This document shows positions 1 to 15,456 of a DNA stretch of 64,000 nucleotides, piece after piece. Numbering within the stretch: the first letter of the stretch is position 1; each line of letters starts with the position of its first letter. Below the pieces are notes generated by a model, which saw nothing but the letters and a program-made list of their open reading frames with translations, searched no databases and was not told the origin of the DNA. The stretch lies in the IMG/VR virus record IMGVR_UViG_3300020159_001521, positions 1-64,000 of that record. The stretch is one strand, 5' to 3'. This DNA is from a virus. The position numbers and the translations under genes were made by a program.

Positions 1-3000
1 ATCAGCTCTATCAAATGTTTCTGTGAACTTCTCGCCATCAGGATAAGTTACTTGAGCTTCTACTGCATTAGCTGTAGCACTCAACACCTTAACCTTTGTC
101 CCTTCATAGGACTCTTTTGAAGAAGATTTGTAGTCAATAATAGGAGTTGCAGTCTCACCTTCTGGGTGATTTACTGTTATCTCTTTATTTTCTATTACAT
201 AATCAACTCCAATACTTTTAGTTTTATCAGAAACTACAGGAGCTACTGGTGCTTGTGAAGCAGCAGGAGTAGGTACCACCTTAGGAGCTAAGGTTTTTGG
301 TGTCACTACAGTTTTTACAGGAGGATTACCATATCTCTTAGCATCTGCTGTATCTGACAGAGTGAAATATATACCTGTCCTATTGACATCACCTTCAACA
401 TTTCTTACAGGTCTGATGCGAGTGGATAGAGGAACATCTTCTGGTTTCCTTCCTTTTGAGGAAAGCAGATAGGTTTGGTAATTAGGCCAAATCTTTGATT
501 CCACCTTACCATTTTCTGATACAGACAGGATTTCTTCATATGGTTGTTTCCATGAATAACTACCATCATCTTTCTTAACCATGGTACTATTCACGTTATT
601 ATACATCATCTGAAGAGTGTCAATCAGTTCACCCTTGTTTTCTCTAATGGCTGTGGGAGTGAATGGATAGGTTTTACCTTTTCCAGATACATAGAGCATA
701 AGTCCATTCTCTGTATCTTCAAAGAATATACTGTTATATCCTACTGCATTTCTTACCTTTCCCCAGTAAACAACAGACTTAAGCCAGTTGTAATATCTCT
801 TAGCAGTTTCAGATTTAAGATTACCATTCTTATTAATATCAACAGCAAGTTGATAGATGGCTCCATAGATGGCTTCTGCTTCTTTCTTGTTGAACAATCT
901 GTTTTTCAGATTGACATAAGCGTTATTAAGAATCAGGAATGGTCTACCCAATGGACTATCGTAAGTTGTAGATCCTTTAGATACAGTGTTATCTGTTGTG
1001 GGAATGTATATAACATTATCGTCTTCAAGATTGGACTCATCAATAAGTCCAGCATCCACTACAGAAACAACAGCATCATAGTTTGGTGTATCATCACTGT
1101 TCATCACATACTGAGGAGTACCAAAAGATGCTTCTATTGAATGTACATTACTTGATGGGTTATCAAGAGTTTCATTTACCCACTCCTGATATTGTTTCTT
1201 ATAATACTCAATTCTTTCTTTAGGAGTTTCTTTCCTAAACATAGATCCACCACCATATTGTTCGCTCCATTCCAAACTTGGATCAGGGAACACTTGATAA
1301 AGAGCATTATTTACAGATACATCCTCTAGAACATTACCATCCTGATCAACAGGTTTATATACACCATCAGTGTCTTGTTTTACAATAACAAGAGCTACTG
1401 TCTTTTCTGGTTTAATTTTTGCTTTCTCTGATTCAGGAAGTTCACTCTGATCCTTAAGATGTTGCGTAAGTCCTCCAAGTTTAAAATCAGCCTCATTCTT
1501 AGAAGTGATTATAACTGCCTTGTATTTTTTCTTTTTAGACGGACTCATTTTGTTAAACAGTACACCGAACAGGTTTGTACGTTTAGCGTGAGGAGCCTCT
1601 GACTTACTAGAGAGTTTTGTGGAAAGAACTACAGCCAATTCAGTTTTCTTAGCCTGTGGTTCATATTCTTTACTATACACCCTGGTTTGCAATCCAGGAT
1701 CAGCAGATCCCAATATCTCTTCTTTAAGAGCTTGGTTCTTTTGTATTCTTTCTTCTTCAGCTTTTTGTGCTTGATATTGTTTTGCTACTTCCTCAAACTT
1801 AGAAATAATAGTGTTCTTAATCTTTAATTGTTGCTCAGCTTCTTGTAAACTGTCCTGCAATTTTTCAAGATCTTTTCTAAGCTCTGCAATTTCTTCCTCT
1901 GTAGGTTTAATTGTAAAGTCTTCAATCTGAGAAACCATGTCTTCCAACATGGCTAAATCTTCTTTATACTTAGGAGCAAGTTTAAGGAAGTTAGGATTGG
2001 CTTTTAAGAAGTCAACCCACTCCTGACCAAGAATTGTTGGTACCTTTGGATAGGCTTTTTCAAATTGACCTATCCAACGGTTTAACAAATCAATAGCTGA
2101 CTCAAGAGCATCTTGAGCTCTGTCTATCATGTCAGATACAGCATTGATAGATTTACCGTTTTCAAGAATTAAATCTTCTAACGCAAGCCTTTGCTCTTTT
2201 AATTCTTGCAAGAACTCCTTACTATCTGTAGGAAGTTCATCTATGTTTTGTGCAAGATCAGCAATCCACTCAAGAGTTGCTTCTGCTTCACTTGTTTCTG
2301 CTTCTAAACTTTCAATTTCAAGACGCAATTGTTCTTGCATTCTTGAGAGTCTATTTGCAGCTTTAATTGCTCTGTTTGTTGTAGCTTTAAAATTGTTCCT
2401 CTTTGTAAGATCGCCAGAAGCAATCTTTTCCTCAAGACCTTTAAGTTCTTTGGTTATTGTCTCAAGTTCATTCTTCTTTTGTTTAAGAAGAGTGTCAACT
2501 CTTTTCTGGTTACCACTAATTTCTTCAAATAGTTCGTTTAGTATTTTTAATCTTTCAGATCTCCTATCTATTTCTCTTGGATCTTCTTCTTGTCCGAGGT
2601 CATCTGTAAGTTTTTGTTCTGCTGCTGTAAGTTCACCAATCTTTCTAACTTTTGCTTGGGCGTAACCTTCTCTAGCAACAAAGTCTTTATTTACAACTTC
2701 TCTTTCCTTTCTTTCTCCTTTTGCATCTTTATATACAAACATAAGAATACCCTCCTTTGGAGAATATTCAAGTCTGCCTTTTGCAGGTTCTAGTTTACCT
2801 TCTTTGTTTTTGATTTTTATACCATAATGTTCAAAAAGGTTATTAGCATTCTCAAGGAAATATTTAGCCTTTTTGTTAGACAACGTAGAGCTCACCTTAC
2901 CAAGCTTAAACTTAGCAAGCTCAGCTTTGGTCAAATCATGAAGCTTCCCATTAATGTCTTTGACTTTAATAGTACCATTTTCATTTTCTCCAAGTACAGT

Positions 3001-5457
3001 GAATCTAGGAAAGCCATACACTTCATTACCTTTACCATCGTCTTTGACCAGATTACCAAGGAAGTATTCTGTTCCCACCTCAAGATCTATCTCACCAGCT
3101 TTAGTCTTAACCTTTATTTTGGTTGTCTCAACATTCTCATCGATAGGTTGATCAGGAACAGATTCTGCTTCTCTATACTCAGCAGGCTTATCTTTTATAT
3201 CATTATACTCGTCCAAGAACTTCTTTCTACGAAGAGTGAGTTCTTTAACGTCACGATAGTCAAGTTTTAAATCATCTTTATTTAAAGAGTTGAGACTATC
3301 AATTTTTGCAAGAACAGCTTCTTCAGATTTTTTAGCTTCTTCCTCAGTTCCTGTTACAGCAGTTTGTAATGCTTCATCTATTATTATACCAGATGAAACA
3401 AGACTTTGTGCCACTTTAGGTATACGCAAGTCATAGTCAGCCACTTTAGAAGCAGCATACACCATCTTATCAATTACATCATCTGTATACAAACGTTTTC
3501 CATTTGCATCAACTTGTCCTCCATATCTAAGATTGAGGGACTTATATAATTCTTCTGTGTTCTTTGCTGTTGTTTCAAACAAAGAAAGGCGTTCCAAAAA
3601 TGTATCTGGTGTATCATTTATGTTTGCTATTCCTTCTTCTTTTAAAGCAGGAAACCCTTTGTCACTCATTGCTTGTGCTCTCAGCTCAGCAATATCACCC
3701 ATTATCATATCAAATCTACCATACTTGATCCTAGGAGCAAGATAGTTGTGCATCATGTCAGCATCAAGATCTTTTGCTTCAAGTTTATCTCCTTGAATAA
3801 TAGCATCTTGTTGTTGTTGTTGCAGAATTACACCTCTATTAACTGCTTGCATCCTATCCTGAAATGCTTTCTGGAAAGATGGTGCACTGTTTATTTGAGA
3901 GAGAAACTGCTGTGTATTATTTTTTGTAGCTCTTGTTTCTCGAAATGTACCTCTAGCTTGCATGAGTCCACCTGTAAGTCCACCCATCAATGCACTTTCC
4001 ATACCCTCTTTAGATACAAAAGCACCAACACCCTCACCATCTTCTCCTCTTCCAACCATTCCATACAGAAAACCATCAACCCACTCATTAGCAGCATTTG
4101 TCTGATAAGCCTTGTTGAAATAATTAACTGTTCCCACTTGTAGGGCATATTGTCCTATTTCTTGAGCTGCTTCCTTAGGATCAAATACATACTTGCCTAC
4201 ATCAGTAACTTTATCATAAAGCTTCCCAAATTTTGTAGTGGATGTAGGAGCTGCAACATATTTACCCTCTTTCATCAACACATCATCTGTTCTACCAAGC
4301 AAACTGTTTGCTGCTTGTCTGCTAGAACTATAATTAGATCCAAGAAGTTTTGGAAGCTGTACATATTCTGTAACAGAAAGAAGAGCTAGATTACCGAAGA
4401 AGGAAGTTTTACCAACCTTCTCAGCCATTTCATTTATATTATCCAGGTCTTCTCCTACAGGATCAAGTCCGCTATGTTTACTTTTATACTCCTCAATAAG
4501 ACCATCTCTATATTGATTTGCTGTTTGCAAAGCTTCAAATGAAGATTCTCCTGCTGAGGAATACGCAGCAATAAGAGTTCTTCTACCTGTATCACCAATA
4601 CCAGCAAACTTATTTGTTTGTTTTGCTATTTCTGCAAGCTTTGAACTTTTTGCAGATATATCAGCAATAGAAGATATTTCTTTTTCAAGAACTGCAGCAG
4701 CTTCTATATTCTTGCCAGCACTGAATGCTCTTGAAGTGTTTCTTAATAAAGGAGTGAATAACTTGAATGCTTGAGAAGCTTCAGCAGCAGTGGCACCAGC
4801 AGCAGCAGCTCTTCCAAGGGCAGCTCCTGCTCTAATCAATCCTGCATTTGCAATATTACCACTAACCATTGCACCCACTGCAAAACCTGAATTCTTAATC
4901 AATTTATCAAATAACCAGTTAGTTTTGAACCAGTTATCTGTAGAATACCATGATGCATTCTTTTCTACGTCTGTGTAATAGTTGGGAAGATATACTTGGT
5001 CCACCTCATTGTTCCACTCATCTAAACTTCTCATTATAGGATTGTCCCATATATCAGCAAGTCTTCCAGAGAAAGGAGCTTTTGCTGCTCCAACAAGCAT
5101 ACCAAAACTTCCAGCAACTGTTGTTCCTGCAAGATTAAGTCCTTTTAATATACCATTAGCAGCTTTGTCCCAACCAGATTGAGCATAAGCTTTTTGATCT
5201 TCCAGATCTATTATATTAGCACTGTATGTACCATATCTCCTATTATCGTACAATTCTTTTGCACTAACTGTAGGAAGCATGTTAGACACTACAGGACCGT
5301 TGCCAAAAAAACTATCCAACGCACTTCCTTCAGCACCTCTTCCTCCACCTAGGTCTGCATATGAATGCGGAACAGGTGTAGATGGATTTGGTAAATCTAA
5401 AGGGCTTGTGTCAGTGTTAGCCAATATAGGGTTTAGATCTTTATCAAAATCTGGCAT
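1..5457 (-). CDS. Giant virion-ejected (cargo) protein, N-terminal >=1819 aa, truncated by the window edge; possibly the virion RNA polymerase-containing protein
   Basis: Missing from the ORF track because it runs off the edge. ATG at 5457 reads MPDFDKDLNPILANTD...WDKAANGILKGLNLAGTTVAGSFGMLVG...YLPNYY. Frame spot-checked open at several points down to base 1. Gly/Ala-rich hydrophobic helices and position after the other cargo genes match crAss-like giant proteins. No RNAP catalytic motif seen in the parts read. Confidence 0.8.
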   Translation of the reverse strand, partial: MPDFDKDLNPILANTDTSPLDLPNPSTPVPHSYADLGGGRGAEGSALDSFFGNGPVVSNMLPTVSAKELYDNRRYGTYSANIIDLEDQKAYAQSGWDKAANGILKGLNLAGTTVAGSFGMLVGAAKAPFSGRLADIWDNPIMRSLDEWNNEVDQVYLPNYYTDVEKNASWYSTDNWFKTNWLFDKLIKNSGFAVGAMVSGNIANAGLIRAGAALGRAAAAGATAAEASQAFKLFTPLLRNTSRAFSAGKNIEAAAVLEKEISSIADISAKSSKLAEIAKQTNKFAGIGDTGRRTLIAAYSSAGESSFEALQTANQYRDGLIEEYKSKHSGLDPVGEDLDNINEMAEKVGKTSFFGNLALLSVTEYVQLPKLLGSNYSSSRQAANSLLGRTDDVLMKEGKYVAAPTSTTKFGKLYDKVTDVGKYVFDPKEAAQEIGQYALQVGTVNYFNKAYQTNAANEWVDGFLYGMVGRGEDGEGVGAFVSKEGMESALMGGLTGGLMQARGTFRETRATKNNTQQFLSQINSAPSFQKAFQDRMQAVNRGVILQQQQQDAIIQGDKLEAKDLDADMMHNYLAPRIKYGRFDMIMGDIAELRAQAMSDKGFPALKEEGIANINDTPDTFLERLSLFETTAKNTEELYKSLNLRYGGQVDANGKRLYTDDVIDKMVYAASKVADYDLRIPKVAQSLVSSGIIIDEALQTAVTGTEEEAKKSEEAVLAKIDSLNSLNKDDLKLDYRDVKELTLRRKKFLDEYNDIKDKPAEYREAESVPDQPIDENVETTKIKVKTKAGEIDLEVGTEYFLGNLVKDDGKGNEVYGFPRFTVLGENENGTIKVKDINGKLHDLTKAELAKFKLGKVSSTLSNKKAKYFLENANNLFEHYGIKIKNKEGKLEPAKGRLEYSPKEGILMFVYKDAKGERKEREVVNKDFVAREGYAQAKVRKIGELTAAEQKLTDDLGQEEDPREIDRRSERLKILNELFEEISGNQKRVDTLLKQKKNELETITKELKGLEEKIASGDLTKRNNFKATTNRAIKAANRLSRMQEQLRLEIESLEAETSEAEATLEWIADLAQNIDELPTDSKEFLQELKEQRLALEDLILENGKSINAVSDMIDRAQDALESAIDLLNRWIGQFEKAYPKVPTILGQEWVDFLKANPNFLKLAPKYKEDLAMLEDMVSQIEDFTIKPTEEEIAELRKDLEKLQDSLQEAEQQLKIKNTIISKFEEVAKQYQAQKAEEERIQKNQALKEEILGSADPGLQTRVYSKEYEPQAKKTELAVVLSTKLSSKSEAPHAKRTNLFGVLFNKMSPSKKKKYKAVIITSKNEADFKLGGLTQHLKDQSELPESEKAKIKPEKTVALVIVKQDTDGVYKPVDQDGNVLEDVSVNNALYQVFPDPSLEWSEQYGGGSMFRKETPKERIEYYKKQYQEWVNETLDNPSSNVHSIEASFGTPQYVMNSDDTPNYDAVVSVVDAGLIDESNLEDDNVIYIPTTDNTVSKGSTTYDSPLGRPFLILNNAYVNLKNRLFNKKEAEAIYGAIYQLAVDINKNGNLKSETAKRYYNWLKSVVYWGKVRNAVGYNSIFFEDTENGLMLYVSGKGKTYPFTPTAIRENKGELIDTLQMMYNNVNSTMVKKDDGSYSWKQPYEEILSVSENGKVESKIWPNYQTYLLSSKGRKPEDVPLSTRIRPVRNVEGDVNRTGIYFTLSDTADAKRYGNPPVKTVVTPKTLAPKVVPTPAASQAPVAPVVSDKTKSIGVDYVIENKEITVNHPEGETATPIIDYKSSSKESYEGTKVKVLSATANAVEAQVTYPDGEKFTETFDRAD

Positions 5458-8155: not shown

Positions 8156-11100
8156 TTAGAGACCTTTAATTGCTTTTACAATTGATCCGTTTCTTTTCCC
8201 TCCCTTTTTATCTTCTTTTTTCTCGTCATTTGTTAGCGCAGCTTTGAACTGATCAAAAGTCATATCTCCTACAGTGCCAGTGTTAAACTTAGTCACTCCT
8301 GTATTAAAGATTCTTCCTTTTGGTCCAAATGTGTAATTTGGATACATGTTTGCCATAACATTGGCTGACATTGTTTCAGCTTTGTTCTTGCCTATCTTCT
8401 CAGCAATTGAACTAAGAGCTTCAAACGCTTGAGCCTTTGTTTTAGATTTAGCTGTCTCTTGTCTTGTGTATTGTTGGTCAAGAATAGCAAGGTTCTTAAG
8501 CGTAGCATCGTTTAGTGTGGCAATGTTTCTTCTCCTCACCTCATCAGACATTGCTTGGTTCATCCTAAACTGCTCACCAAGCACCTTGTTTTTAGCAGCT
8601 GAAGCTTGTGCAGCAATCATTGCTTGTGCGGCAGGATTGCCTCCAGCCATTCTCATAGCAGCATTTGTTTGAGATTGTATCTCATTGAGTTGATCCTGAA
8701 GAGAAATAGCACTCACTTGCTCAAGCATAGGTTGATATGTCTGAGCTTGTACAGGTTCTAATTGATTAGAAGACAATGCAAACATCTCTCCAGCAAGTTG
8801 ACCAGGATCTAAAGGGTTCCTTATTGCTGGTTTGATATATGGATATAATGTGTCGTATGCATCTATTGCCTTGTCAAAGAGAGAGCTTTCTTTTGCAACA
8901 GGTTGAACAGGAACTCTAAAAGCAGGAGCAGGTCTATTTTGTATATCTGTTAAGTAAGATCTATCTATAGTACGTATGTTTCTAATTGGAATAGGTCTAA
9001 CTAACTCTTTTCTAGGTTCTCTTTCAGGGGCTTTTTCTGAAGTTTTCTTTGTATCTGTTTTCTTTGCGCTTGTTGAAGTTTTCTTTTGACTAACAGAAGG
9101 TGTTGGAGTTACACCATATCCTGGTCCTTGTACAAATGGTAAAGGATCTCCATATTGCCAAGGTGGTGTATTTGCCTTAAATCCAAACTGAGCAGTTTCC
9201 ATTTTAGCACCAAACTTAGCCATGTCTGAATTCTTTATAGGTTTAAGTTTTCCTTTGGAAAGAGCATCGCTTTCTACACCCATTTCTTCTGCTGTATCGA
9301 GAATAGCATTCTGCACTCCTGCTGCTGTTTGTTTTTTCATTGATATGTCTTTTAGTTTCATATCTGCACCTGTGAGCATAGCTTTTGCAGAAGCAAGCTT
9401 TAACATATCGAAAGGATTGTCTCCATCTATATTGTTAACAAGATTAATGTTTTTATCTATAATCTTGTTCTGCTTTGCTTCACTTTTGCTGAGGTCTGCT
9501 ACATATGTTTTGAACTTCTTACCCTTTGCTTTGGGATCGTTGAGTTCTGTTATTCCATAGGAAGGAATCTTCATGTTACCATATACAACAAGATTTTCTT
9601 CTCCTGTGCCACCGTCTTTAAGCTTTACAGCTGGCTCACCTCTTTCCACTTCTACAGGACTTTCTCCAAATTTAATACCTATTCCTGTTCTTCCTTGTCC
9701 GTCAGATTCATCGTGAGATTGTCCTCTGAACATTATTGTTTCTCCTCCATCTGGTAGATAGGGATTGTAAGAGATTGTTTCAGCATCACCACCCCAATAT
9801 GTTTCAAGTTCTCCACCCATTTGCATCATTGACAATCTTTCATCATTGCCCATGTAGTTTGACCTAATGTTTCTAACCTCACCACCAGCTCTTAACATAT
9901 CTGCATCATTAGGAGGAGCAAGTAAATCATTTACGTCATACTCACCAAACTTAGCAATCACTTGTGGTTGCCAATCATGACTTAAATACTTGAGTCCAAC
10001 TTCTCCACCATCTTCCATGAATGCATTGAACTGACCTTGTTGCAATTGTTGTGCACCTTGTTGGAAAGCAGCTTGTCCAAGAATCTGTTGATTCCTTTTC
10101 ATTCTGTTTTCTGTACCTATATCTATTATTCCACTAACTACATCACCAGCAATATTTGCAGCATTACCAGCTTGTTCAGCACCAGCTTTTATTGCACCAA
10201 TCATTGCTCCTGCTGCTGCCTTACCACCTTTTCTGTATTGTTTAACTGTATTACTGTCATCCAATGGTTCATATCCAAGATCCATGTACATGTCACCAGG
10301 ATTGTACATGTTTTGAATCTCTGTTAAATTGCCTCCTATTTGCATTCCGTATTTAGCAAGAAGGTTTGTGCCAGATCCATAGGGATTGTTTAACACTCCA
10401 GGTTCAACAAGATTATCCTCAGGACGAACATATTTACGATTTACTCTCTCAGGAGCAAGACCTGACACTTGTTGTGTAAGACTAGCAAGATTACCAGCTT
10501 GTCTAGCTTTAGCAGCTTGATCGATTGATTGCTTCACCTTTCTACCAGCGTTAACAATCTGACCAAGTGGTTTAGCAAGAGGTCCTGCAAGAGAAATACC
10601 TTTATCAAGAAGTTTACCTCCAGCAGTTGTTGCTAGAGATTTTGGTTGTTTAGATTGTTGTGCAGGTTGTTGATTCTGTTGTGCAAACTGTGCATCAAGC
10701 ATTTGTGTCTGTCCTTGTGTAACCTTTCCAGTGGCGTTAGATGTAACTTGTCCAGTGATAGGATCTAATGTAGTTAAGTTTGGACCAAATTGCATGTATG
10801 AAGGAACTCCTCCACCACCCTGATATCTAGGAACATTACCACCAGCTCTTTTCATAAACATTGATGCTAGTTGCATAGCTTGACCTGCATCCATTCCACC
10901 AGAAGAATCTTCTGTTGTTTCTTCCTGTTGAGCAAGTTGGGCAAGTCGAGCTTCTTCTGCTCTCATTGCGTTTGTCTTGCCACTTGTCATGTAATCAAGA
11001 TTGTCATACATGCCTCTGATATCAACAGGTTGGTACATAGGTTGTTGTACACCACCTTGGATGTAATCACCAACTTTTGCCTGAGGAGGGTTAGCAAAAT

Positions 11101-11272
11101 CTGTAAGCTGTGTTAATTGCTTTTTAACCATAGCTGCTCCCATCTTGGCTTTCTTAACAGCTTTCTTAAAAGCACCACCATGTTTAGCCATAAACTCAGC
11201 TTCTGTACCATACTTAGCGTACAATTCAGCTTCAGATTTAACACCAGCAATTTTCAGAATGTCTTTTTTCAT
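8156..11272 (-). CDS. Virion cargo protein with repeated x[QKER]xG(G) motifs (1038 aa)
   Basis: Low-complexity Q/A/G-rich protein with about 15 motif copies (AKMG, YQGGG, MQIGG, YRKGG, MEDGG, LRAGG, MQMGG, AQFG...) and a central GQSHDE...VEVERGE domain; cargo-region synteny. Confidence 0.65.
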   Translation of the reverse strand: MKKDILKIAGVKSEAELYAKYGTEAEFMAKHGGAFKKAVKKAKMGAAMVKKQLTQLTDFANPPQAKVGDYIQGGVQQPMYQPVDIRGMYDNLDYMTSGKTNAMRAEEARLAQLAQQEETTEDSSGGMDAGQAMQLASMFMKRAGGNVPRYQGGGGVPSYMQFGPNLTTLDPITGQVTSNATGKVTQGQTQMLDAQFAQQNQQPAQQSKQPKSLATTAGGKLLDKGISLAGPLAKPLGQIVNAGRKVKQSIDQAAKARQAGNLASLTQQVSGLAPERVNRKYVRPEDNLVEPGVLNNPYGSGTNLLAKYGMQIGGNLTEIQNMYNPGDMYMDLGYEPLDDSNTVKQYRKGGKAAAGAMIGAIKAGAEQAGNAANIAGDVVSGIIDIGTENRMKRNQQILGQAAFQQGAQQLQQGQFNAFMEDGGEVGLKYLSHDWQPQVIAKFGEYDVNDLLAPPNDADMLRAGGEVRNIRSNYMGNDERLSMMQMGGELETYWGGDAETISYNPYLPDGGETIMFRGQSHDESDGQGRTGIGIKFGESPVEVERGEPAVKLKDGGTGEENLVVYGNMKIPSYGITELNDPKAKGKKFKTYVADLSKSEAKQNKIIDKNINLVNNIDGDNPFDMLKLASAKAMLTGADMKLKDISMKKQTAAGVQNAILDTAEEMGVESDALSKGKLKPIKNSDMAKFGAKMETAQFGFKANTPPWQYGDPLPFVQGPGYGVTPTPSVSQKKTSTSAKKTDTKKTSEKAPEREPRKELVRPIPIRNIRTIDRSYLTDIQNRPAPAFRVPVQPVAKESSLFDKAIDAYDTLYPYIKPAIRNPLDPGQLAGEMFALSSNQLEPVQAQTYQPMLEQVSAISLQDQLNEIQSQTNAAMRMAGGNPAAQAMIAAQASAAKNKVLGEQFRMNQAMSDEVRRRNIATLNDATLKNLAILDQQYTRQETAKSKTKAQAFEALSSIAEKIGKNKAETMSANVMANMYPNYTFGPKGRIFNTGVTKFNTGTVGDMTFDQFKAALTNDEKKEDKKGGKRNGSIVKAIKGL

Positions 11273-11294
11273 TATATATTTTTGAAAAGGTTTT

Positions 11295-13403
11295 TTAATT
11301 GTATTTGTCTAACCAACCACCGTTTTTCTTTTTCTCAATTAGTTCTTTTGCATATTTAGGAACAGCAAACCTTTCGTAGTCTTCTGGTTTGATGTATGTT
11401 GTATCTCCCTTCTGATTAGCAAATCCTATAAGAGCACTTGGTAGCCCACTTCCTGTTCCTGGAGAATACACAGGGCTCCCTTCATATATGTTTTGTTTTC
11501 TTTCTACAGGTTTGGGTTGTTCTGTTTTCTTAACAGGTTGTTCTTTCTTAGATTCAACTGTAGACTTACTAATAGGTTTAGAATTAGGTTTATTTATAGG
11601 TTTAGGTTTTGGCTTTGGTTTAGACTTAGAAACAACAGGAGGTGCAGTAGGAGGTGTTTTTAGTGGAACAGACTGTTTGTTTACTGTAGACAGTGCTCCT
11701 TGATTTTTCACATTGTTTTTAACATAATCGTCTGTAAACTTATTCCAAATTTTCTTAACACCACTTTCTAATTTATCATTTACATTTTGTAAAGATTTTC
11801 CTATATTAGTTTTACCTATAGCGTTGTTAATGTCACTTAGTTTAGAACCAACATTATCCCAAAAACCGCTTACTGGTTCATATTTTTCCCAAGGATCCAT
11901 TTCGGGATATTTATAGCTTGGTATTCTATAGTTTTTACCGCCTACAGTAACATTATCATATGATGTTGGTTTAACATCAGAAGTGTTATTTATAAGATTT
12001 TTATTTCGTGAAATAGATTGATCTACTGCTGAACTGTTTCTTGTACGAACTGCATCCCACAAAGCTTGAGTATAATCATATGTGTTTACAGAATCTAAAT
12101 AACTGTTTCCCATTTTTTTAAAATCACTCATTGGTATTTTTATTTTTTTACCACTTTGAGCAATAGGGTATTCTGTAACTGATTCACCATCAAACTCATA
12201 TTCTTCTCCAGGTTCCATATATTGTACATCTCCTGTATCAGAAATACCAATGAGAGGTTCGTACACTCCTTCCATGGTTATTTGGTTAGAACCTATTTCA
12301 ACAGGCTCTCCCCAGTTCTCTGGGTTCCAATAGCCCATGTCATCCTTCTTTATCTCTCCACCCTTTTCGTATTTCTTACCTCTAACAGCAGCATCCAATT
12401 GATCTTGAACATACATGTAAGGAGCAGAACGATATTGATAACTTTCTTTCGATAATGGTATAGCTGACGCACTGTAGAATTTATCTTGCTTAAGATGTTC
12501 TGGAACAGCTTTCAGTGATGTAGTTTTTCTTGGATATAGAAATCTATTCCTTGGAACTATATATTCATTAGGATTAACAGATTGTCTTTGTGCTTCCTTG
12601 AGAGCAACAACATCCTCATCAAACTTTACACTCTTCTTCCAAAAAGGAACTTTATATTCAGTGAGAAGCATATCCTCCCCTGTAACTAAACCAGGTCTTC
12701 CACCTGGTATATCAACACCTTTTAAATATTGAAATGCTTCGTCTAAGTCTTTAGTTGTCCAATCTCCCTTCTCATATACTTTTTTAGAAAGATCACTACT
12801 CTCATATCCCAAAACATTCTTACCAGGAACTTGTGCCCTGTATGTTCTGGTAGGATAGATAATGTCATCTACACCTTTAGCCATTTTAGCTCCTGCAAGA
12901 ATATTCACAGGATCTAAAATTAGGTCTGTAACAAAAGCCCCAGCTTTATTCTGAATACCCATTGCTTCAGAAGGTTTCTGATATTTACCAGATATAAGTT
13001 TAGTCAGAGCTTTTTGAGGAGCAGAAAGTACTTCTCCTACATTTTCAGCAAACTTTTGGTATTGTTCTGTTGTAGGTAAAATACCAATACCTAATTGAGC
13101 TTGTGGTATCTCACTTCCATCTTGACTTATGTTCTTTGGTTTCCAATCTAGTCCTTCTTGGTAGAATTTCATTTCTCCACCATCCTGTGCACTAGCTTTT
13201 GTCTTCTTAGCATAAGGACCATTGCTAGGAGCAGGGTTCTGCGTACGTGCGTACATGAATCCTACAGAACCAGGGAGAGATCCTCCTGTTTGCATTGTTC
13301 CACCCCATGCACCATTATAATTAAAGCCTTGGTCTGTTAAGCCATCCATTGTAGCTTCTATACCATTTTCAGCTTCTTTATATTTGTCTAACCACTTTTT
13401 CAT
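11295..13403 (-). CDS. Modular virion cargo protein with internal ADP-ribosyltransferase-like domain (702 aa)
   Basis: WLDKY at both termini; x[QE]xG(G) motifs; internal TYRA...GDWTTKDLDEAFQY...NEYIVP ART-like signature; Pro/Lys-rich linker. Confidence 0.6.
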   Translation of the reverse strand: MKKWLDKYKEAENGIEATMDGLTDQGFNYNGAWGGTMQTGGSLPGSVGFMYARTQNPAPSNGPYAKKTKASAQDGGEMKFYQEGLDWKPKNISQDGSEIPQAQLGIGILPTTEQYQKFAENVGEVLSAPQKALTKLISGKYQKPSEAMGIQNKAGAFVTDLILDPVNILAGAKMAKGVDDIIYPTRTYRAQVPGKNVLGYESSDLSKKVYEKGDWTTKDLDEAFQYLKGVDIPGGRPGLVTGEDMLLTEYKVPFWKKSVKFDEDVVALKEAQRQSVNPNEYIVPRNRFLYPRKTTSLKAVPEHLKQDKFYSASAIPLSKESYQYRSAPYMYVQDQLDAAVRGKKYEKGGEIKKDDMGYWNPENWGEPVEIGSNQITMEGVYEPLIGISDTGDVQYMEPGEEYEFDGESVTEYPIAQSGKKIKIPMSDFKKMGNSYLDSVNTYDYTQALWDAVRTRNSSAVDQSISRNKNLINNTSDVKPTSYDNVTVGGKNYRIPSYKYPEMDPWEKYEPVSGFWDNVGSKLSDINNAIGKTNIGKSLQNVNDKLESGVKKIWNKFTDDYVKNNVKNQGALSTVNKQSVPLKTPPTAPPVVSKSKPKPKPKPINKPNSKPISKSTVESKKEQPVKKTEQPKPVERKQNIYEGSPVYSPGTGSGLPSALIGFANQKGDTTYIKPEDYERFAVPKYAKELIEKKKNGGWLDKYN

Positions 13404-13406
13404 TAC

Positions 13407-13955
13407 TTATACAATTACGTGATTCCATTTAAGATTCTTAACAATATCATAGACAAAATGATACTTTTTATTATACATCTTTGCTATCTTTGAAACAGAA
13501 AGATTGTTATACTTGTAAAGAATTTTTATTTTAGCAACCTCTTCTTCATTAGTTTTAGCCATAGGATTTTTTGAACCACTAATGCAATTGTTCCTCCCTT
13601 CTTTATGCATTTGTTGTGCATTATCTTTGCAAGTTCCCCATTTAAGATTTTCTAACTTATTATTCAACTTATTATTATCTAGATGCATGGAAACTTCTCC
13701 ATCTTTAGGCATTCTGTCAAAAGTCATTAACACAATTCTATTTATTCTAAAAGTCTTTAACTTTTTATCTTTGTATAAATTTACATGATAATACCCAGAA
13801 GGAGACAATATTGGTTTTAACGTTTCCTCTGGATATGTTCTAAAATATCCTTTGTGTTTTTCTACCCACACTTTACTAGCTAATCTTTTTACATTTCCTA
13901 AATTGCTAACTTGATAAAGTTCTTCATATCCAGGAACATTATTCCAAATTTCCAT
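13407..13955 (-). mobile_element. Free-standing NUMOD4-HNH homing endonuclease
   Basis: EIWNNVPGYEELYQVSNLGNVKR (NUMOD4) and MHLDNNKLNNKLENLKWGTCKDN (HNH_3); C-terminal HTH; AT-rich insert between structural genes. Confidence 0.9.
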
Positions 13956-13961
13956 ACATTA

Positions 13962-14831
13962 TTATTTATAACTTATCATTGTACTTGTAACAACAAATTG
14001 ACTTACAATATGAATGTCTGACTTGTCATCTAATGTGTGACGAATTTTAAGGTCCTTGGCCATTATTGGAGATTTCTTAAAGGATCTCTTACCATAATCC
14101 ATATTAGCTTGATTAACTATTTTATCTATTGACATTGATTGACAGCTGTTTGTGAATAAAGGTACTGTCTTGCTCTTAATCAATGACCAGAATGTGTTGT
14201 ATTGATAGAAGTTGTCGCTCTTTGTAAATGTAATTGTTTTACTCTCATCATTATACAAAGGATACTTCATGTATTGGTTGAGGTTGTTCAATGGTTTAGG
14301 AACAAGCTCAAGCACTCCTGATGATTGCTGACCATTGTACAAGACTGCTTTATTGAAATAGTGTTGGTCTGTCTCCACCTTCTGATTGTCGTTAAATACA
14401 CCATCTGCACTTTGTATATATCTATACACCTTGCTATAGTCTTTTACATTCTGCAAGATTTCATCTTGGTATTTGTATGCAAAAGGATATTCAATAATGT
14501 ATGGATGAATACATCCATAGAACTTATTGTAAATAACTGGATTAGTAAGATGTCTCCAGAGAGATGCTGTGTTGGTGTCTTGAAACTGTATAGCTGCAAG
14601 TTCCTCCACTGTAGCTGTTCCTATTGGAATGTTTATCGATGTTGTGCAACATGTGTACAGAGACTTTATGACAATCACCTTTACATCATCATCCACACTG
14701 AAGGTGATGCCGCTTATTATATTTTCCTTAGACACATTAGTAGAAAGAACAACTCCTTTATCATCTAAGATTTCAAAAGGACCTGTTCTTCTACCAGCGC
14801 TTGTGAGTTTTATAATGATTGTCTTAGCCAT
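13962..14831 (-). CDS. C-terminal part of split muzzle/tail stabilisation protein, preceded by an LTxAGxxTGPF domain
   Basis: SLWRHL..IYNKFYG..PYIIEY continues the sequence pattern that normally follows WxSFHSYxP in this family; first ~70 aa are homologous to the N-terminus of 14845-15456. Confidence 0.6.
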   Translation of the reverse strand: MAKTIIIKLTSAGRRTGPFEILDDKGVVLSTNVSKENIISGITFSVDDDVKVIVIKSLYTCCTTSINIPIGTATVEELAAIQFQDTNTASLWRHLTNPVIYNKFYGCIHPYIIEYPFAYKYQDEILQNVKDYSKVYRYIQSADGVFNDNQKVETDQHYFNKAVLYNGQQSSGVLELVPKPLNNLNQYMKYPLYNDESKTITFTKSDNFYQYNTFWSLIKSKTVPLFTNSCQSMSIDKIVNQANMDYGKRSFKKSPIMAKDLKIRHTLDDKSDIHIVSQFVVTSTMISYK

Positions 14832-14844
14832 CTACATTTTACAT

Positions 14845-15456
14845 TTAACAAGTTCCTTGATTATCACCATTAACAGTGAAATAGAAAGTTCTTGTATTCA
14901 CATTAGTTATCAAAAACCATGTACAACTTAGAGCTGAGAAAGCAGGACATGTTGTTATGTCTCTTGCACTCTGCCATGTGATTCCTGTATTACCATTTGT
15001 AGTAATCTTAACAGCAAGAGAAGAGTTTCTCTGTACATTCAACACTGCTCTTTGTACACAACCTGTATCGCTGAAAGCTGCACCTGTTGCTGTCCAACTT
15101 ATTCCTCCATCTTGTGAATAAGCAAATTTCAATGCTGGAAAAACTGATGCTGCTGGATCATGTCTTGCGTACAATATAATCTGAACCAAATCTTGAGAAG
15201 TGGTAGTGGAAGTGGTACTGGTGGTTATACCAGCAATTGGTAAGTCTACAAAATTAGTACACAAAATACTTGTTGACCTCACCCTAACAACTGTTGCTCC
15301 ATCAGGAACAACTGTTGATGTATATCCTGCTAAAAGAGCTGCTCTAGAAACTCCTGTTTGAAATGGTGTTACAAATCCGTCAGCGTTTGAAAACAAATTA
15401 AAAGGACCTGTATCAGCTCCTGCGGTGGTTAATGTTAATATTACTGTTTGTGGCAT
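14845..15456 (-). CDS. Tail accessory/adhesin-like protein (LTxAGxxTGPF domain, Thr linker, Asp-box domain)
   Basis: MPQTVILTLTTAGADTGPF..., TTSTTSTTTS linker, YSQDGGISW Asp-box (SxDxGxxW). Confidence 0.55.
   Translation of the reverse strand: MPQTVILTLTTAGADTGPFNLFSNADGFVTPFQTGVSRAALLAGYTSTVVPDGATVVRVRSTSILCTNFVDLPIAGITTSTTSTTTSQDLVQIILYARHDPAASVFPALKFAYSQDGGISWTATGAAFSDTGCVQRAVLNVQRNSSLAVKITTNGNTGITWQSARDITTCPAFSALSCTWFLITNVNTRTFYFTVNGDNQGTC

Follow-up and report, generated by a model that had tools for sequence, protein, structure and literature searches.

Exchangeable cassettes between conserved, glycine-punctuated segments in two putative ejected cargo proteins of a divergent crAss-like phage

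Among described phage proteins, the closest counterpart of the system considered here is cargo protein C1, gp45 of Bacteroides phage PhicrAss001 (Bayfield et al. 2023, PMC10172136; PDB 7QOG; Pfam family PF25725, crAss_CARG1), which is encoded in the gene order gp44-gp45-gp46-gp47 in a region whose products are present in virions and presumed to be ejected. Here we describe two adjacent genes encoding proteins of 702 and 1038 amino acids (aa) in a 64,000-nucleotide stretch (the window) of the IMG/VR virus record IMGVR_UViG_3300020159_001521, comprising positions 1 to 64,000 of a 113,680-base record with a terminal overlap of 91 bases. The record belongs to a divergent crAss-like phage that is probably aquatic. 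A first-pass annotation of the window, made from the letters alone, had read both open reading frames (ORFs) as virion cargo polyproteins with swappable payloads, punctuated by a repeated x-[QKER]-x-G(G) motif; both ORFs and all motif strings listed in it were found in our analysis (Table 1). The system resembles gp45 in lying after the muzzle gene, in the predicted fold of a compact domain with SH[DE]E and VE.GE motifs, and in being long, glycine-rich and partly disordered with many Gly-Gly (GG) pairs. It differs from gp45 in that a gene of its own, that of the 702-aa protein with its discrete payload slots, encodes the N-terminal half, sequence similarity is remote, and the glycine junctions between segments (seams) have the form [M/L/Y]-[Q/K/R/E]-x-G-G here and A-[F/Y]-G-G in gp45. 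The gp45 paper (PMC10172136) describes neither seams nor cassettes.

A second described group is that of the polyvalent proteins of phages and conjugative elements (Iyer, Burroughs, Anand, de Souza and Aravind 2017, PMC5512222), which are likewise multi-domain mosaics of enzymatic effector domains, and whose packaging and joint delivery with the DNA are predicted. Fixed slots, a repeated Gly-Gly seam and a constant docking-like backbone are not part of that description (PMC5512222), from which the word 'linker' is absent. The 702-aa gene lies in the virion module, adjoining the muzzle gene and the C1 homologue, as a polyvalent-type gene would, and ART-PolyVal domains occur in relatives of its product. 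Neither query protein, however, carries a recognisable hallmark domain, and the HExxH string of the zincin-like (MPTase) polyvalent proteins is absent from both.

Adenovirus precursors are cut at GG by adenain, and African swine fever virus pp220/pp62 by pS273R, both clan CE proteases, while the internal and head proteins and Alt of T4 and the inner-body and head proteins of phiKZ are cut by prohead proteases. The two proteins examined here resemble such processed polyproteins in their presumed virion-internal location and in having each unit flanked on either side by a short motif that ends in small residues, but a cognate protease was not found here and the homologous sites are uncut in the PhicrAss001 structure. 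A conserved virion part joined to exchangeable enzymatic parts is also seen in MuF-type polymorphic toxins of temperate phages and in the ejection proteins of T7 and P22, such as T7 gp16, in which an SLT domain is a cell-wall enzyme fused to an ejected protein. To our knowledge, however, these have one variable C- or N-terminal domain and not several internal slots with a repeated seam.

Sequence comparison placed the 702-aa protein in a hypervariable family, as its 1311 homologues contain shuffled modules that cover just 10–50% of the protein in changing order. When slots were measured in 172 distinct family members with regular-expression anchors for the constant segments, distances between anchors were sharply bimodal, and the family can be described at the sequence level as a series of short constant segments separated by at least three discrete slots, each empty or filled (Table 1). 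Filled slots carry a seam on both sides (for example AQNG before the insert and QNGG after it, followed by the next constant segment), and the 13 distinct inserts found in slot B–C fall into 7 unrelated groups. In an all-against-all comparison of 120 family members, the ends of high-scoring segment pairs lay within 6 residues of [QKERND]xGG 3.3-fold more often than expected from coverage. Four indels, all at G(G), separate the 702-aa protein from its closest relative P0122, with which it shares 87% identity over the common parts. P0122 is extended at the N terminus by a stretch that ends in GG in front of WLDKY, has one insert following the AQ[D/N]G seam and another following SQDGS, and lacks 280 aa between AQSG and the last GG-WLDKY. 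Alignment of homologues thus demonstrated that relatives gain, lose and swap cassettes of 95–713 aa at fixed seams, in agreement with the earlier proposal of swappable payloads. No published description of this seam-and-slot plan was found in the literature searched.

The constant parts of the 702-aa protein are of two kinds. Backbone residues 9–105 are near-invariant yet predicted to be disordered, with predicted local distance difference test (pLDDT) values of 33–39, and this segment holds slot B–C (after residue 76) as well as the left edge of slot C–D, its break points falling at residues 33–43, 73–75 and 96–105. The acidic beta domain, in turn, was modelled with pLDDT above 90 and is never interrupted in relatives, where its 45-aa anchor spacing was retained in 106 of 114 cases. 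This domain was the only part of the 702-aa protein detected by tblastn against a phage record collection. Outside crAss-like phages, the domain recurs in Leptolyngbya phage Lbo-JY46 (a hypothetical protein) and in virus NIOZ-UU157 (a LysM protein).

Payloads recognised in relatives of the 702-aa protein included ART-PolyVal, ADPrib_exo_Tox, His_Phos_1 and SLT domains, so that enzymes are recognisable among the exchanged segments, although most inserts belong to no known family. The cassettes of the query protein itself matched no Pfam or PHROGs family and gave weak ART/RES-like Atlas leads only; residues 177–344 had neighbours in ART-PolyVal, Tox-ART-HYD1, RES and DUF3990 clusters (score 0.77, template modelling score 0.40–0.49), and the same place in relative P0151 is occupied by a different insert, in a protein with an ART-PolyVal domain. 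An HExxH string was present in 39 of the 172 distinct family members against roughly 2 expected by a rough estimate, which suggests that a zincin-like cassette is a common payload among these relatives. No peptidase family was detected by Pfam in 40 relatives, and the HExxH cassette is not recognised by Pfam. The model of the 702-aa protein gave short helical matches only in the VIA structural search (Z below 6), and hhalign of the family against gp45 returned nothing.

Profile and structural comparisons identified the 1038-aa protein as a remote homologue of C1. In hhalign, query residues 402–588 aligned with gp45 residues 347–505 (E 0.0013, 148 columns, 30% identity), with MEDGG paired to AKDGG, MQMGG..WGG to AFGG..QGG, SHDE to SHEE and VERGE to VEQGE. 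An AlphaFold model built with 70 homologues had confident folds at residues 1–57, in a beta domain (489–563), in a helical hairpin (587–664) and in the C-terminal helical domain, while block 271–383 is highly conserved, yet predicted to be disordered. Model residues 498–664 matched the portal-bound gp45 fragment 7qog_M in VIA (root-mean-square deviation 3.4 over 115 of 126 residues, 19% identity) at a Z score of 7.3, a value within the range of chance helical matches. Foldseek against the viral models of BFVD retrieved proteins named 'Cargo protein 1 compact domain', together with crAss002 and Cellulophaga phage proteins, at E 5e-7 and weaker, and the Cellulophaga relatives carry the label 'structural protein'. 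On these profile and model matches, the SHDE/EVE domain corresponds to the compact domain with which C1 binds the portal (gp45 residues 425–552). The domain around GQSHDE...VEVERGE had been put forward as a candidate processing domain; its identity with the C1 compact domain refutes this assignment and it is therefore not regarded as a protease.

Other searches with the two proteins were negative or were set aside. Neither matched a Pfam or PHROGs family, a sequence search of PDB chains gave nothing significant for either, and tblastn against the phage record collection found no match for the 1038-aa protein. BLASTP of its conserved disordered block (296–360) against the tail-bound part of gp45 returned nothing, and Foldseek of the 1038-aa model against the PDB returned weak DnaK substrate-binding-domain rows only (E 0.37), which were not trusted. 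Homologues of the 1038-aa protein number in the thousands in metagenomes, on contigs of ~110 kb, and the payloads recognised in C1 relatives were SLT, YkuD and DUF3597. In relative P0024, homology ends directly after the seam equivalent to MEDGG and a YkuD domain lies ~100 residues further downstream. Insertion points of the C1 family in MAFFT alignments fell at seams only approximately, and the clean slot result therefore rests on the 702 family.

The abundance of the glycine motif was assessed against 500 composition-matched shuffles of each protein. The loose form [QKER]-x-G was barely above chance, with 35 occurrences in the 1038-aa protein against 25.8 expected (p about 0.014) and 18 in the 702-aa protein against 14.9 (not significant). 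By contrast, [QKER]-x-GG occurred 10 times in the 1038-aa protein against 2.6 expected, a count reached in none of the 500 shuffles, and 4 times in the 702-aa protein against 1.2 expected (p about 0.03), while other large proteins of the window had 0–1 each, save the 1819-aa giant ORF with 3 against 2.1 expected. The earlier claim of unusual motif density is thus upheld for the Gly-Gly form and not for the loose pattern. A refined motif, [MLYFIV][QKRE]xGG, which was defined after seeing the data, was found 7 times in the 1038-aa protein, twice in the 702-aa protein and twice in each of three small basic proteins, compared with just 9 times in the other ~32,800 aa of the genome, so that it singles out these five proteins genome-wide.

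The three small basic proteins are lysine-rich, 110–132 aa long and encoded outside the window, at genome positions 77193-77540(-), 78221-78553(-) and 78556-78954(-) (L001:13293-13640, 14321-14653 and 14656-15054). Two of the three begin MAK..KKAQxG, and each has 2–3 [M/L]-[K/Q]-x-GG seams. They had no Pfam match and no BLAST similarity or homology to the cargo families, and may represent further packaged or core proteins that share the motif.

Several of the seams are strictly conserved. Across the 70 homologues of the 1038-aa protein, the GGs at 313, 349, 422, 463 and 486 were invariant, as were the second glycine of the 494–495 pair and residue 510; these sites correspond to the GGs of MQIGG, YRKGG, MEDGG, LRAGG and MQMGG and to one glycine each of the WGG and DGG pairs. 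The motifs were also confirmed to divide segments of differing character, since they delimit the acidic beta domain, the compact domain, the conserved disordered stretches and the P/K-rich linkers. An interpretation without any specific function, in which the motifs are ordinary glycine-rich turns and linkers noticed through a loose pattern, would agree with the chance-level frequency of that pattern, with the near absence of consensus in de-replicated GG contexts, and with those GGs that are plain turns in folded domains (494, 509, 554 and 877 in the 1038-aa protein and 488 in the 702-aa protein), some of them beta-turns. We nevertheless consider it very unlikely, given that GG and [QKER]xGG exceed composition-matched shuffles, that seven GG sites are invariant, that the slots are discrete, and that break points are concentrated at seams.

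A further interpretation treats the seams as cleavage sites in polyproteins: a protease of phage or host origin would cleave behind Gly-Gly, either as the virion matures or once the proteins have been ejected, and so release the payloads. Every inserted cassette brings a second seam, so that modules are flanked on both sides as in viral polyproteins, upstream residues are conserved at frequent seams, the motif recurs in the three small basic proteins that could be core proteins, and HExxH is common in 702-family members. Autoprocessing by zincin domains has been proposed for polyvalent proteins (Iyer et al., PMC5512222) and is counted here in favour of cleavage. On the other hand, Pfam scans of all ORFs of at least 80 aa, including the giants, detected no maturation protease and as peptidases just Peptidase_M15_3 (endolysin) and Peptidase_S74 (fibre chaperone), and PHROGs scans of the structural block detected none either, although a very divergent protease could escape both scans. 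Both query proteins lack HExxH as noted above, and the turn-forming GGs lie within folded domains. Cutting would yield conserved peptides of 20–45 aa, and cutting after the C-terminal GG would free a six-residue peptide only.

The structure of gp45 bears directly on cleavage. This protein has 20 GG sites, of which GG434 and GG447 lie inside a continuous modelled chain (about 425–552) and GG427 lies at its N-terminal edge, with F426 present; their counterparts in the 1038-aa protein are WGG, the residue preceding SHDE, and MQMGG. Homologous GG sites are therefore uncut in the PhicrAss001 model, and the PhicrAss001 papers do not mention processing. Proteolytic maturation, as suggested in the first-pass annotation, is unsupported on this evidence, although cleavage would be possible for seams in disordered regions, and as a general account of the seams we regard it as improbable. 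The other suggestion of that annotation, a capsid-packaging tag, may still hold.

In the 80 related loci compared, the 702-family gene has a length of 193–1848 aa or is missing. Loci without it have a longer C1 homologue (roughly 1160–2040 aa in most) that contains 702-family segments, and in some phages the 702-type protein is fused to C1; we interpret the 702-aa protein as the detachable N-terminal half of the same functional unit. A programmed frameshift or readthrough joining the 702-aa and 1038-aa genes was considered and rejected, as their frames differ here and their relation is not constant among loci. The C-terminal end GGWL[D/N]KY plus 0–4 residues was present in 41 of 54 distinct 702-family genes irrespective of length (193–1848 aa), and a WLDKY-type peptide stood at the start in 16 of the 54. 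In the 702-aa gene the copies at both ends form a 17-nucleotide direct repeat that is 94% identical, through which the entire gene body might be lost or exchanged precisely. In 50 of 51 split loci, the WLDKY tail was accompanied by the N-terminal helical domain of C1, while the domain was absent from 15 of 16 unsplit loci. These observations give a lead to a docking pair formed by the tail and the domain, and since the related loci are not independent, the co-occurrence is a lead and not proof.

The same observations would fit an interpretation in which the seams, or the constant peptides beside them (WLDKY, for example), serve as a code of short address signals recognised by the portal, ring, muzzle or a scaffold. 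Whatever lies between two seams would then be packaged and ejected later on, and WLDKY would dock onto the C1 N-terminal domain and so rejoin the two halves. The tail is nearly universal at the C terminus regardless of content, the portal-bound domain of gp45 has GGWL at its N-terminal edge, and the constant segments are invariant yet disordered, in addition to the co-occurrence in split loci. However, that co-occurrence may reflect one fission inherited by a clade whose related loci share labels, and WLDKY is also found internally and at the N terminus, so it is not a unique C-terminal tag. We consider this interpretation doubtful. In a broader form, the seam would be an address or processing code read by a virion component or an unrecognised protease, by which any domain placed between seams is loaded into the lumen of the tail or capsid, delivered to the host and possibly released there, and which also tags the small basic proteins; this, too, is a rather unlikely possibility in our estimate.

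Our preferred interpretation, to which we assign a probability of about 0.55, is that both are ejected cargo proteins in which modules lie between conserved unstructured constant segments, with the G(G) seams acting as uncut hinges. The cassette architecture itself was demonstrated by the sequence comparisons above, while docking and hinging are roles inferred from the gp45 analogy. The ordered pieces of gp45, 214–245 (bound to the tail barrel) and 425–552 (bound to the portal), are bracketed by GG at 209, 427 and 562, and the constant segments of the present proteins, which are nearly invariant yet predicted to be disordered in both, therefore probably dock as well, to the lumen of the portal, tail ring or muzzle. 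The SHDE/EVE compact domain would bind the portal wing inside the capsid, and the chain of modules would be held in the virion lumen by its constant segments, between which the payload cassettes lie. The Gly-Gly seams probably serve as flexible hinges, so that folding, unfolding and passage through the portal and tail channel proceed separately for each module, their conserved flanks probably provide recombination handles for cassette exchange, and the proteins would be delivered as whole, uncut chains.

Several observations weigh against this interpretation. Docking of the constant segments is an analogy only, and the C1 assignment has to be read with the VIA score at the level of chance helical matches; the 1038-aa protein has no Pfam family at E<=0.01, and as PF25725 does not reach it (nothing genome-wide at E<=10), its C1 homology is remote. 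After de-replication, GG contexts show almost no flanking consensus. The flanks of the frequent seams are slot-specific (basic, then Q/N/E/D, then GG), which a pure hinge would not need and which suggests recognition by a partner, and a role at module seams alone does not account for the motif in three unrelated small basic proteins.

The genomic setting agrees with a cargo function for both genes, which sit where crassvirus cargo genes sit, as had been claimed. A single minus-strand block was found by Pfam to encode the muzzle (PF25731), Crass_capsid, both ring proteins (1 and 2) and a P22-like portal, and PHROGs scans of the structural block recognised portal, terminase and major head protein. 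The muzzle gene is followed downstream by genes for proteins of 203 and 289 aa, an HNH/NUMOD4 endonuclease, the 702-aa, 1038-aa and 866-aa proteins and a giant ORF. The order muzzle, (203), 289, (702 family), C1 homologue, 866 and giant ORF was constant across the 80 related loci, and the 1038-aa gene has the position of C1, after the muzzle block and before the C2 and RNA-polymerase giant genes. The 866-aa protein matched gp46 (C2) at E 0.029 only, and its identity with C2 is not established.

Other genes of the record were observed alongside. The NUMOD4/HNH homing-type endonuclease gene lies between the 289-aa and 702-aa genes, a junction at which an HNH gene was seen in just 2 of the 80 related loci (L037 and L079), and it is therefore probably a mobile insertion. 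The 1819-aa ORF runs off the start of the window and continues from genome position 113589 to ~105667; with the 91-base overlap removed, it reads in frame as a single ORF of 4459 aa, which is followed by one of 2118 aa, and neither has a Pfam family. At genome positions 83167-87789(-) (L002:7-4629), a 1540-aa protein with an alpha-L-arabinofuranosidase B catalytic-like stretch and CBM_4_9 is probably a glycan-degrading tail fibre or spike.

Table 1. Positions of the two cargo-type proteins, their segments and neighbouring features in the window, with slot lengths of the 702 family.
Feature	Window positions	Strand	Residues	Basis or remark
702-aa modular cargo-type protein, constant backbone and payload cassettes	11295..13403	(-)		ORF, homologues, position in 80 loci
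N-terminal WLDKY	13380..13394	(-)	4-8	also closes the protein
Conserved predicted-disordered backbone	13089..13379	(-)	9-105	seams AENG, WGG, MQTGG, AQDGG, SQDG, AQLG
Slot C-D content: helical segment and ~165-aa payload cassette	12372..13088	(-)	106-176 and 177-344	
Payload cassette alone	12372..12875	(-)	177-344	
YEKGG seam and acidic beta domain	12150..12371	(-)	345-418	ends in AQSG seam
Third-slot content: helical/beta-hairpin module, P/K-rich linker, conserved C-terminal hairpin module	11331..12149	(-)	419-691	
C-terminal seam and WLDKY tail	11298..11330	(-)	692-702	
17-nucleotide direct repeat, two copies	11299..11315 and 13378..13394			WLDKY copies at both ends
Slot B to C				empty 1 aa (51 cases); filled 95-444 aa (16 cases)
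Slot C to D				empty 9-20 aa (51 cases); filled 214-713 aa (57 cases)
Slot D to E (third slot)				empty 15-27 aa (48 cases); filled 147-676 aa (44 cases)
Whole 1038-aa remote C1 homologue	8156..11272	(-)		homology and PhicrAss001-like gene order
N-terminal helical domain	11102..11272	(-)	1-57	contains KHGG; alignment and model
Conserved predicted-disordered block	10208..10462	(-)	271-355	invariant MQIGG and YRKGG seams
Helix and linkers	9818..10207	(-)	356-485	MEDGG and LRAGG seams
Compact beta domain and helical hairpin, with GQSHDE...VEVERGE	9281..9817	(-)	486-664	VIA, hhalign, BFVD
P/K-rich variable linker and conserved C-terminal helical domain	8159..9280	(-)	665-797 and 798-1038	RMAGG turn, KKGG/KRNG tail
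NUMOD4/HNH homing-type endonuclease	13407..13955	(-)		
Crassvirus muzzle PF25731	15468..20132	(-)		Pfam
1819-aa ORF	1..5457	(-)		runs off window start

Crassviruses, which rank with the most abundant of known phages, load and eject protein amounting to several megadaltons. The sites at which natural selection tolerates foreign domains in an ejected protein are revealed by the slot-and-seam plan, which also predicts the short segments that hold the chain in the virion. It further provides a catalogue of mostly unknown payloads that probably precede the DNA into Bacteroidota hosts. Should the seams be recognised, whether docked or cut, they would offer a simple handle with which to study or use phage protein delivery in laboratory pairs of phage and host, and if an address or processing code were true, the plan would amount to a general plug-and-play protein-delivery system of crAss-like phages.

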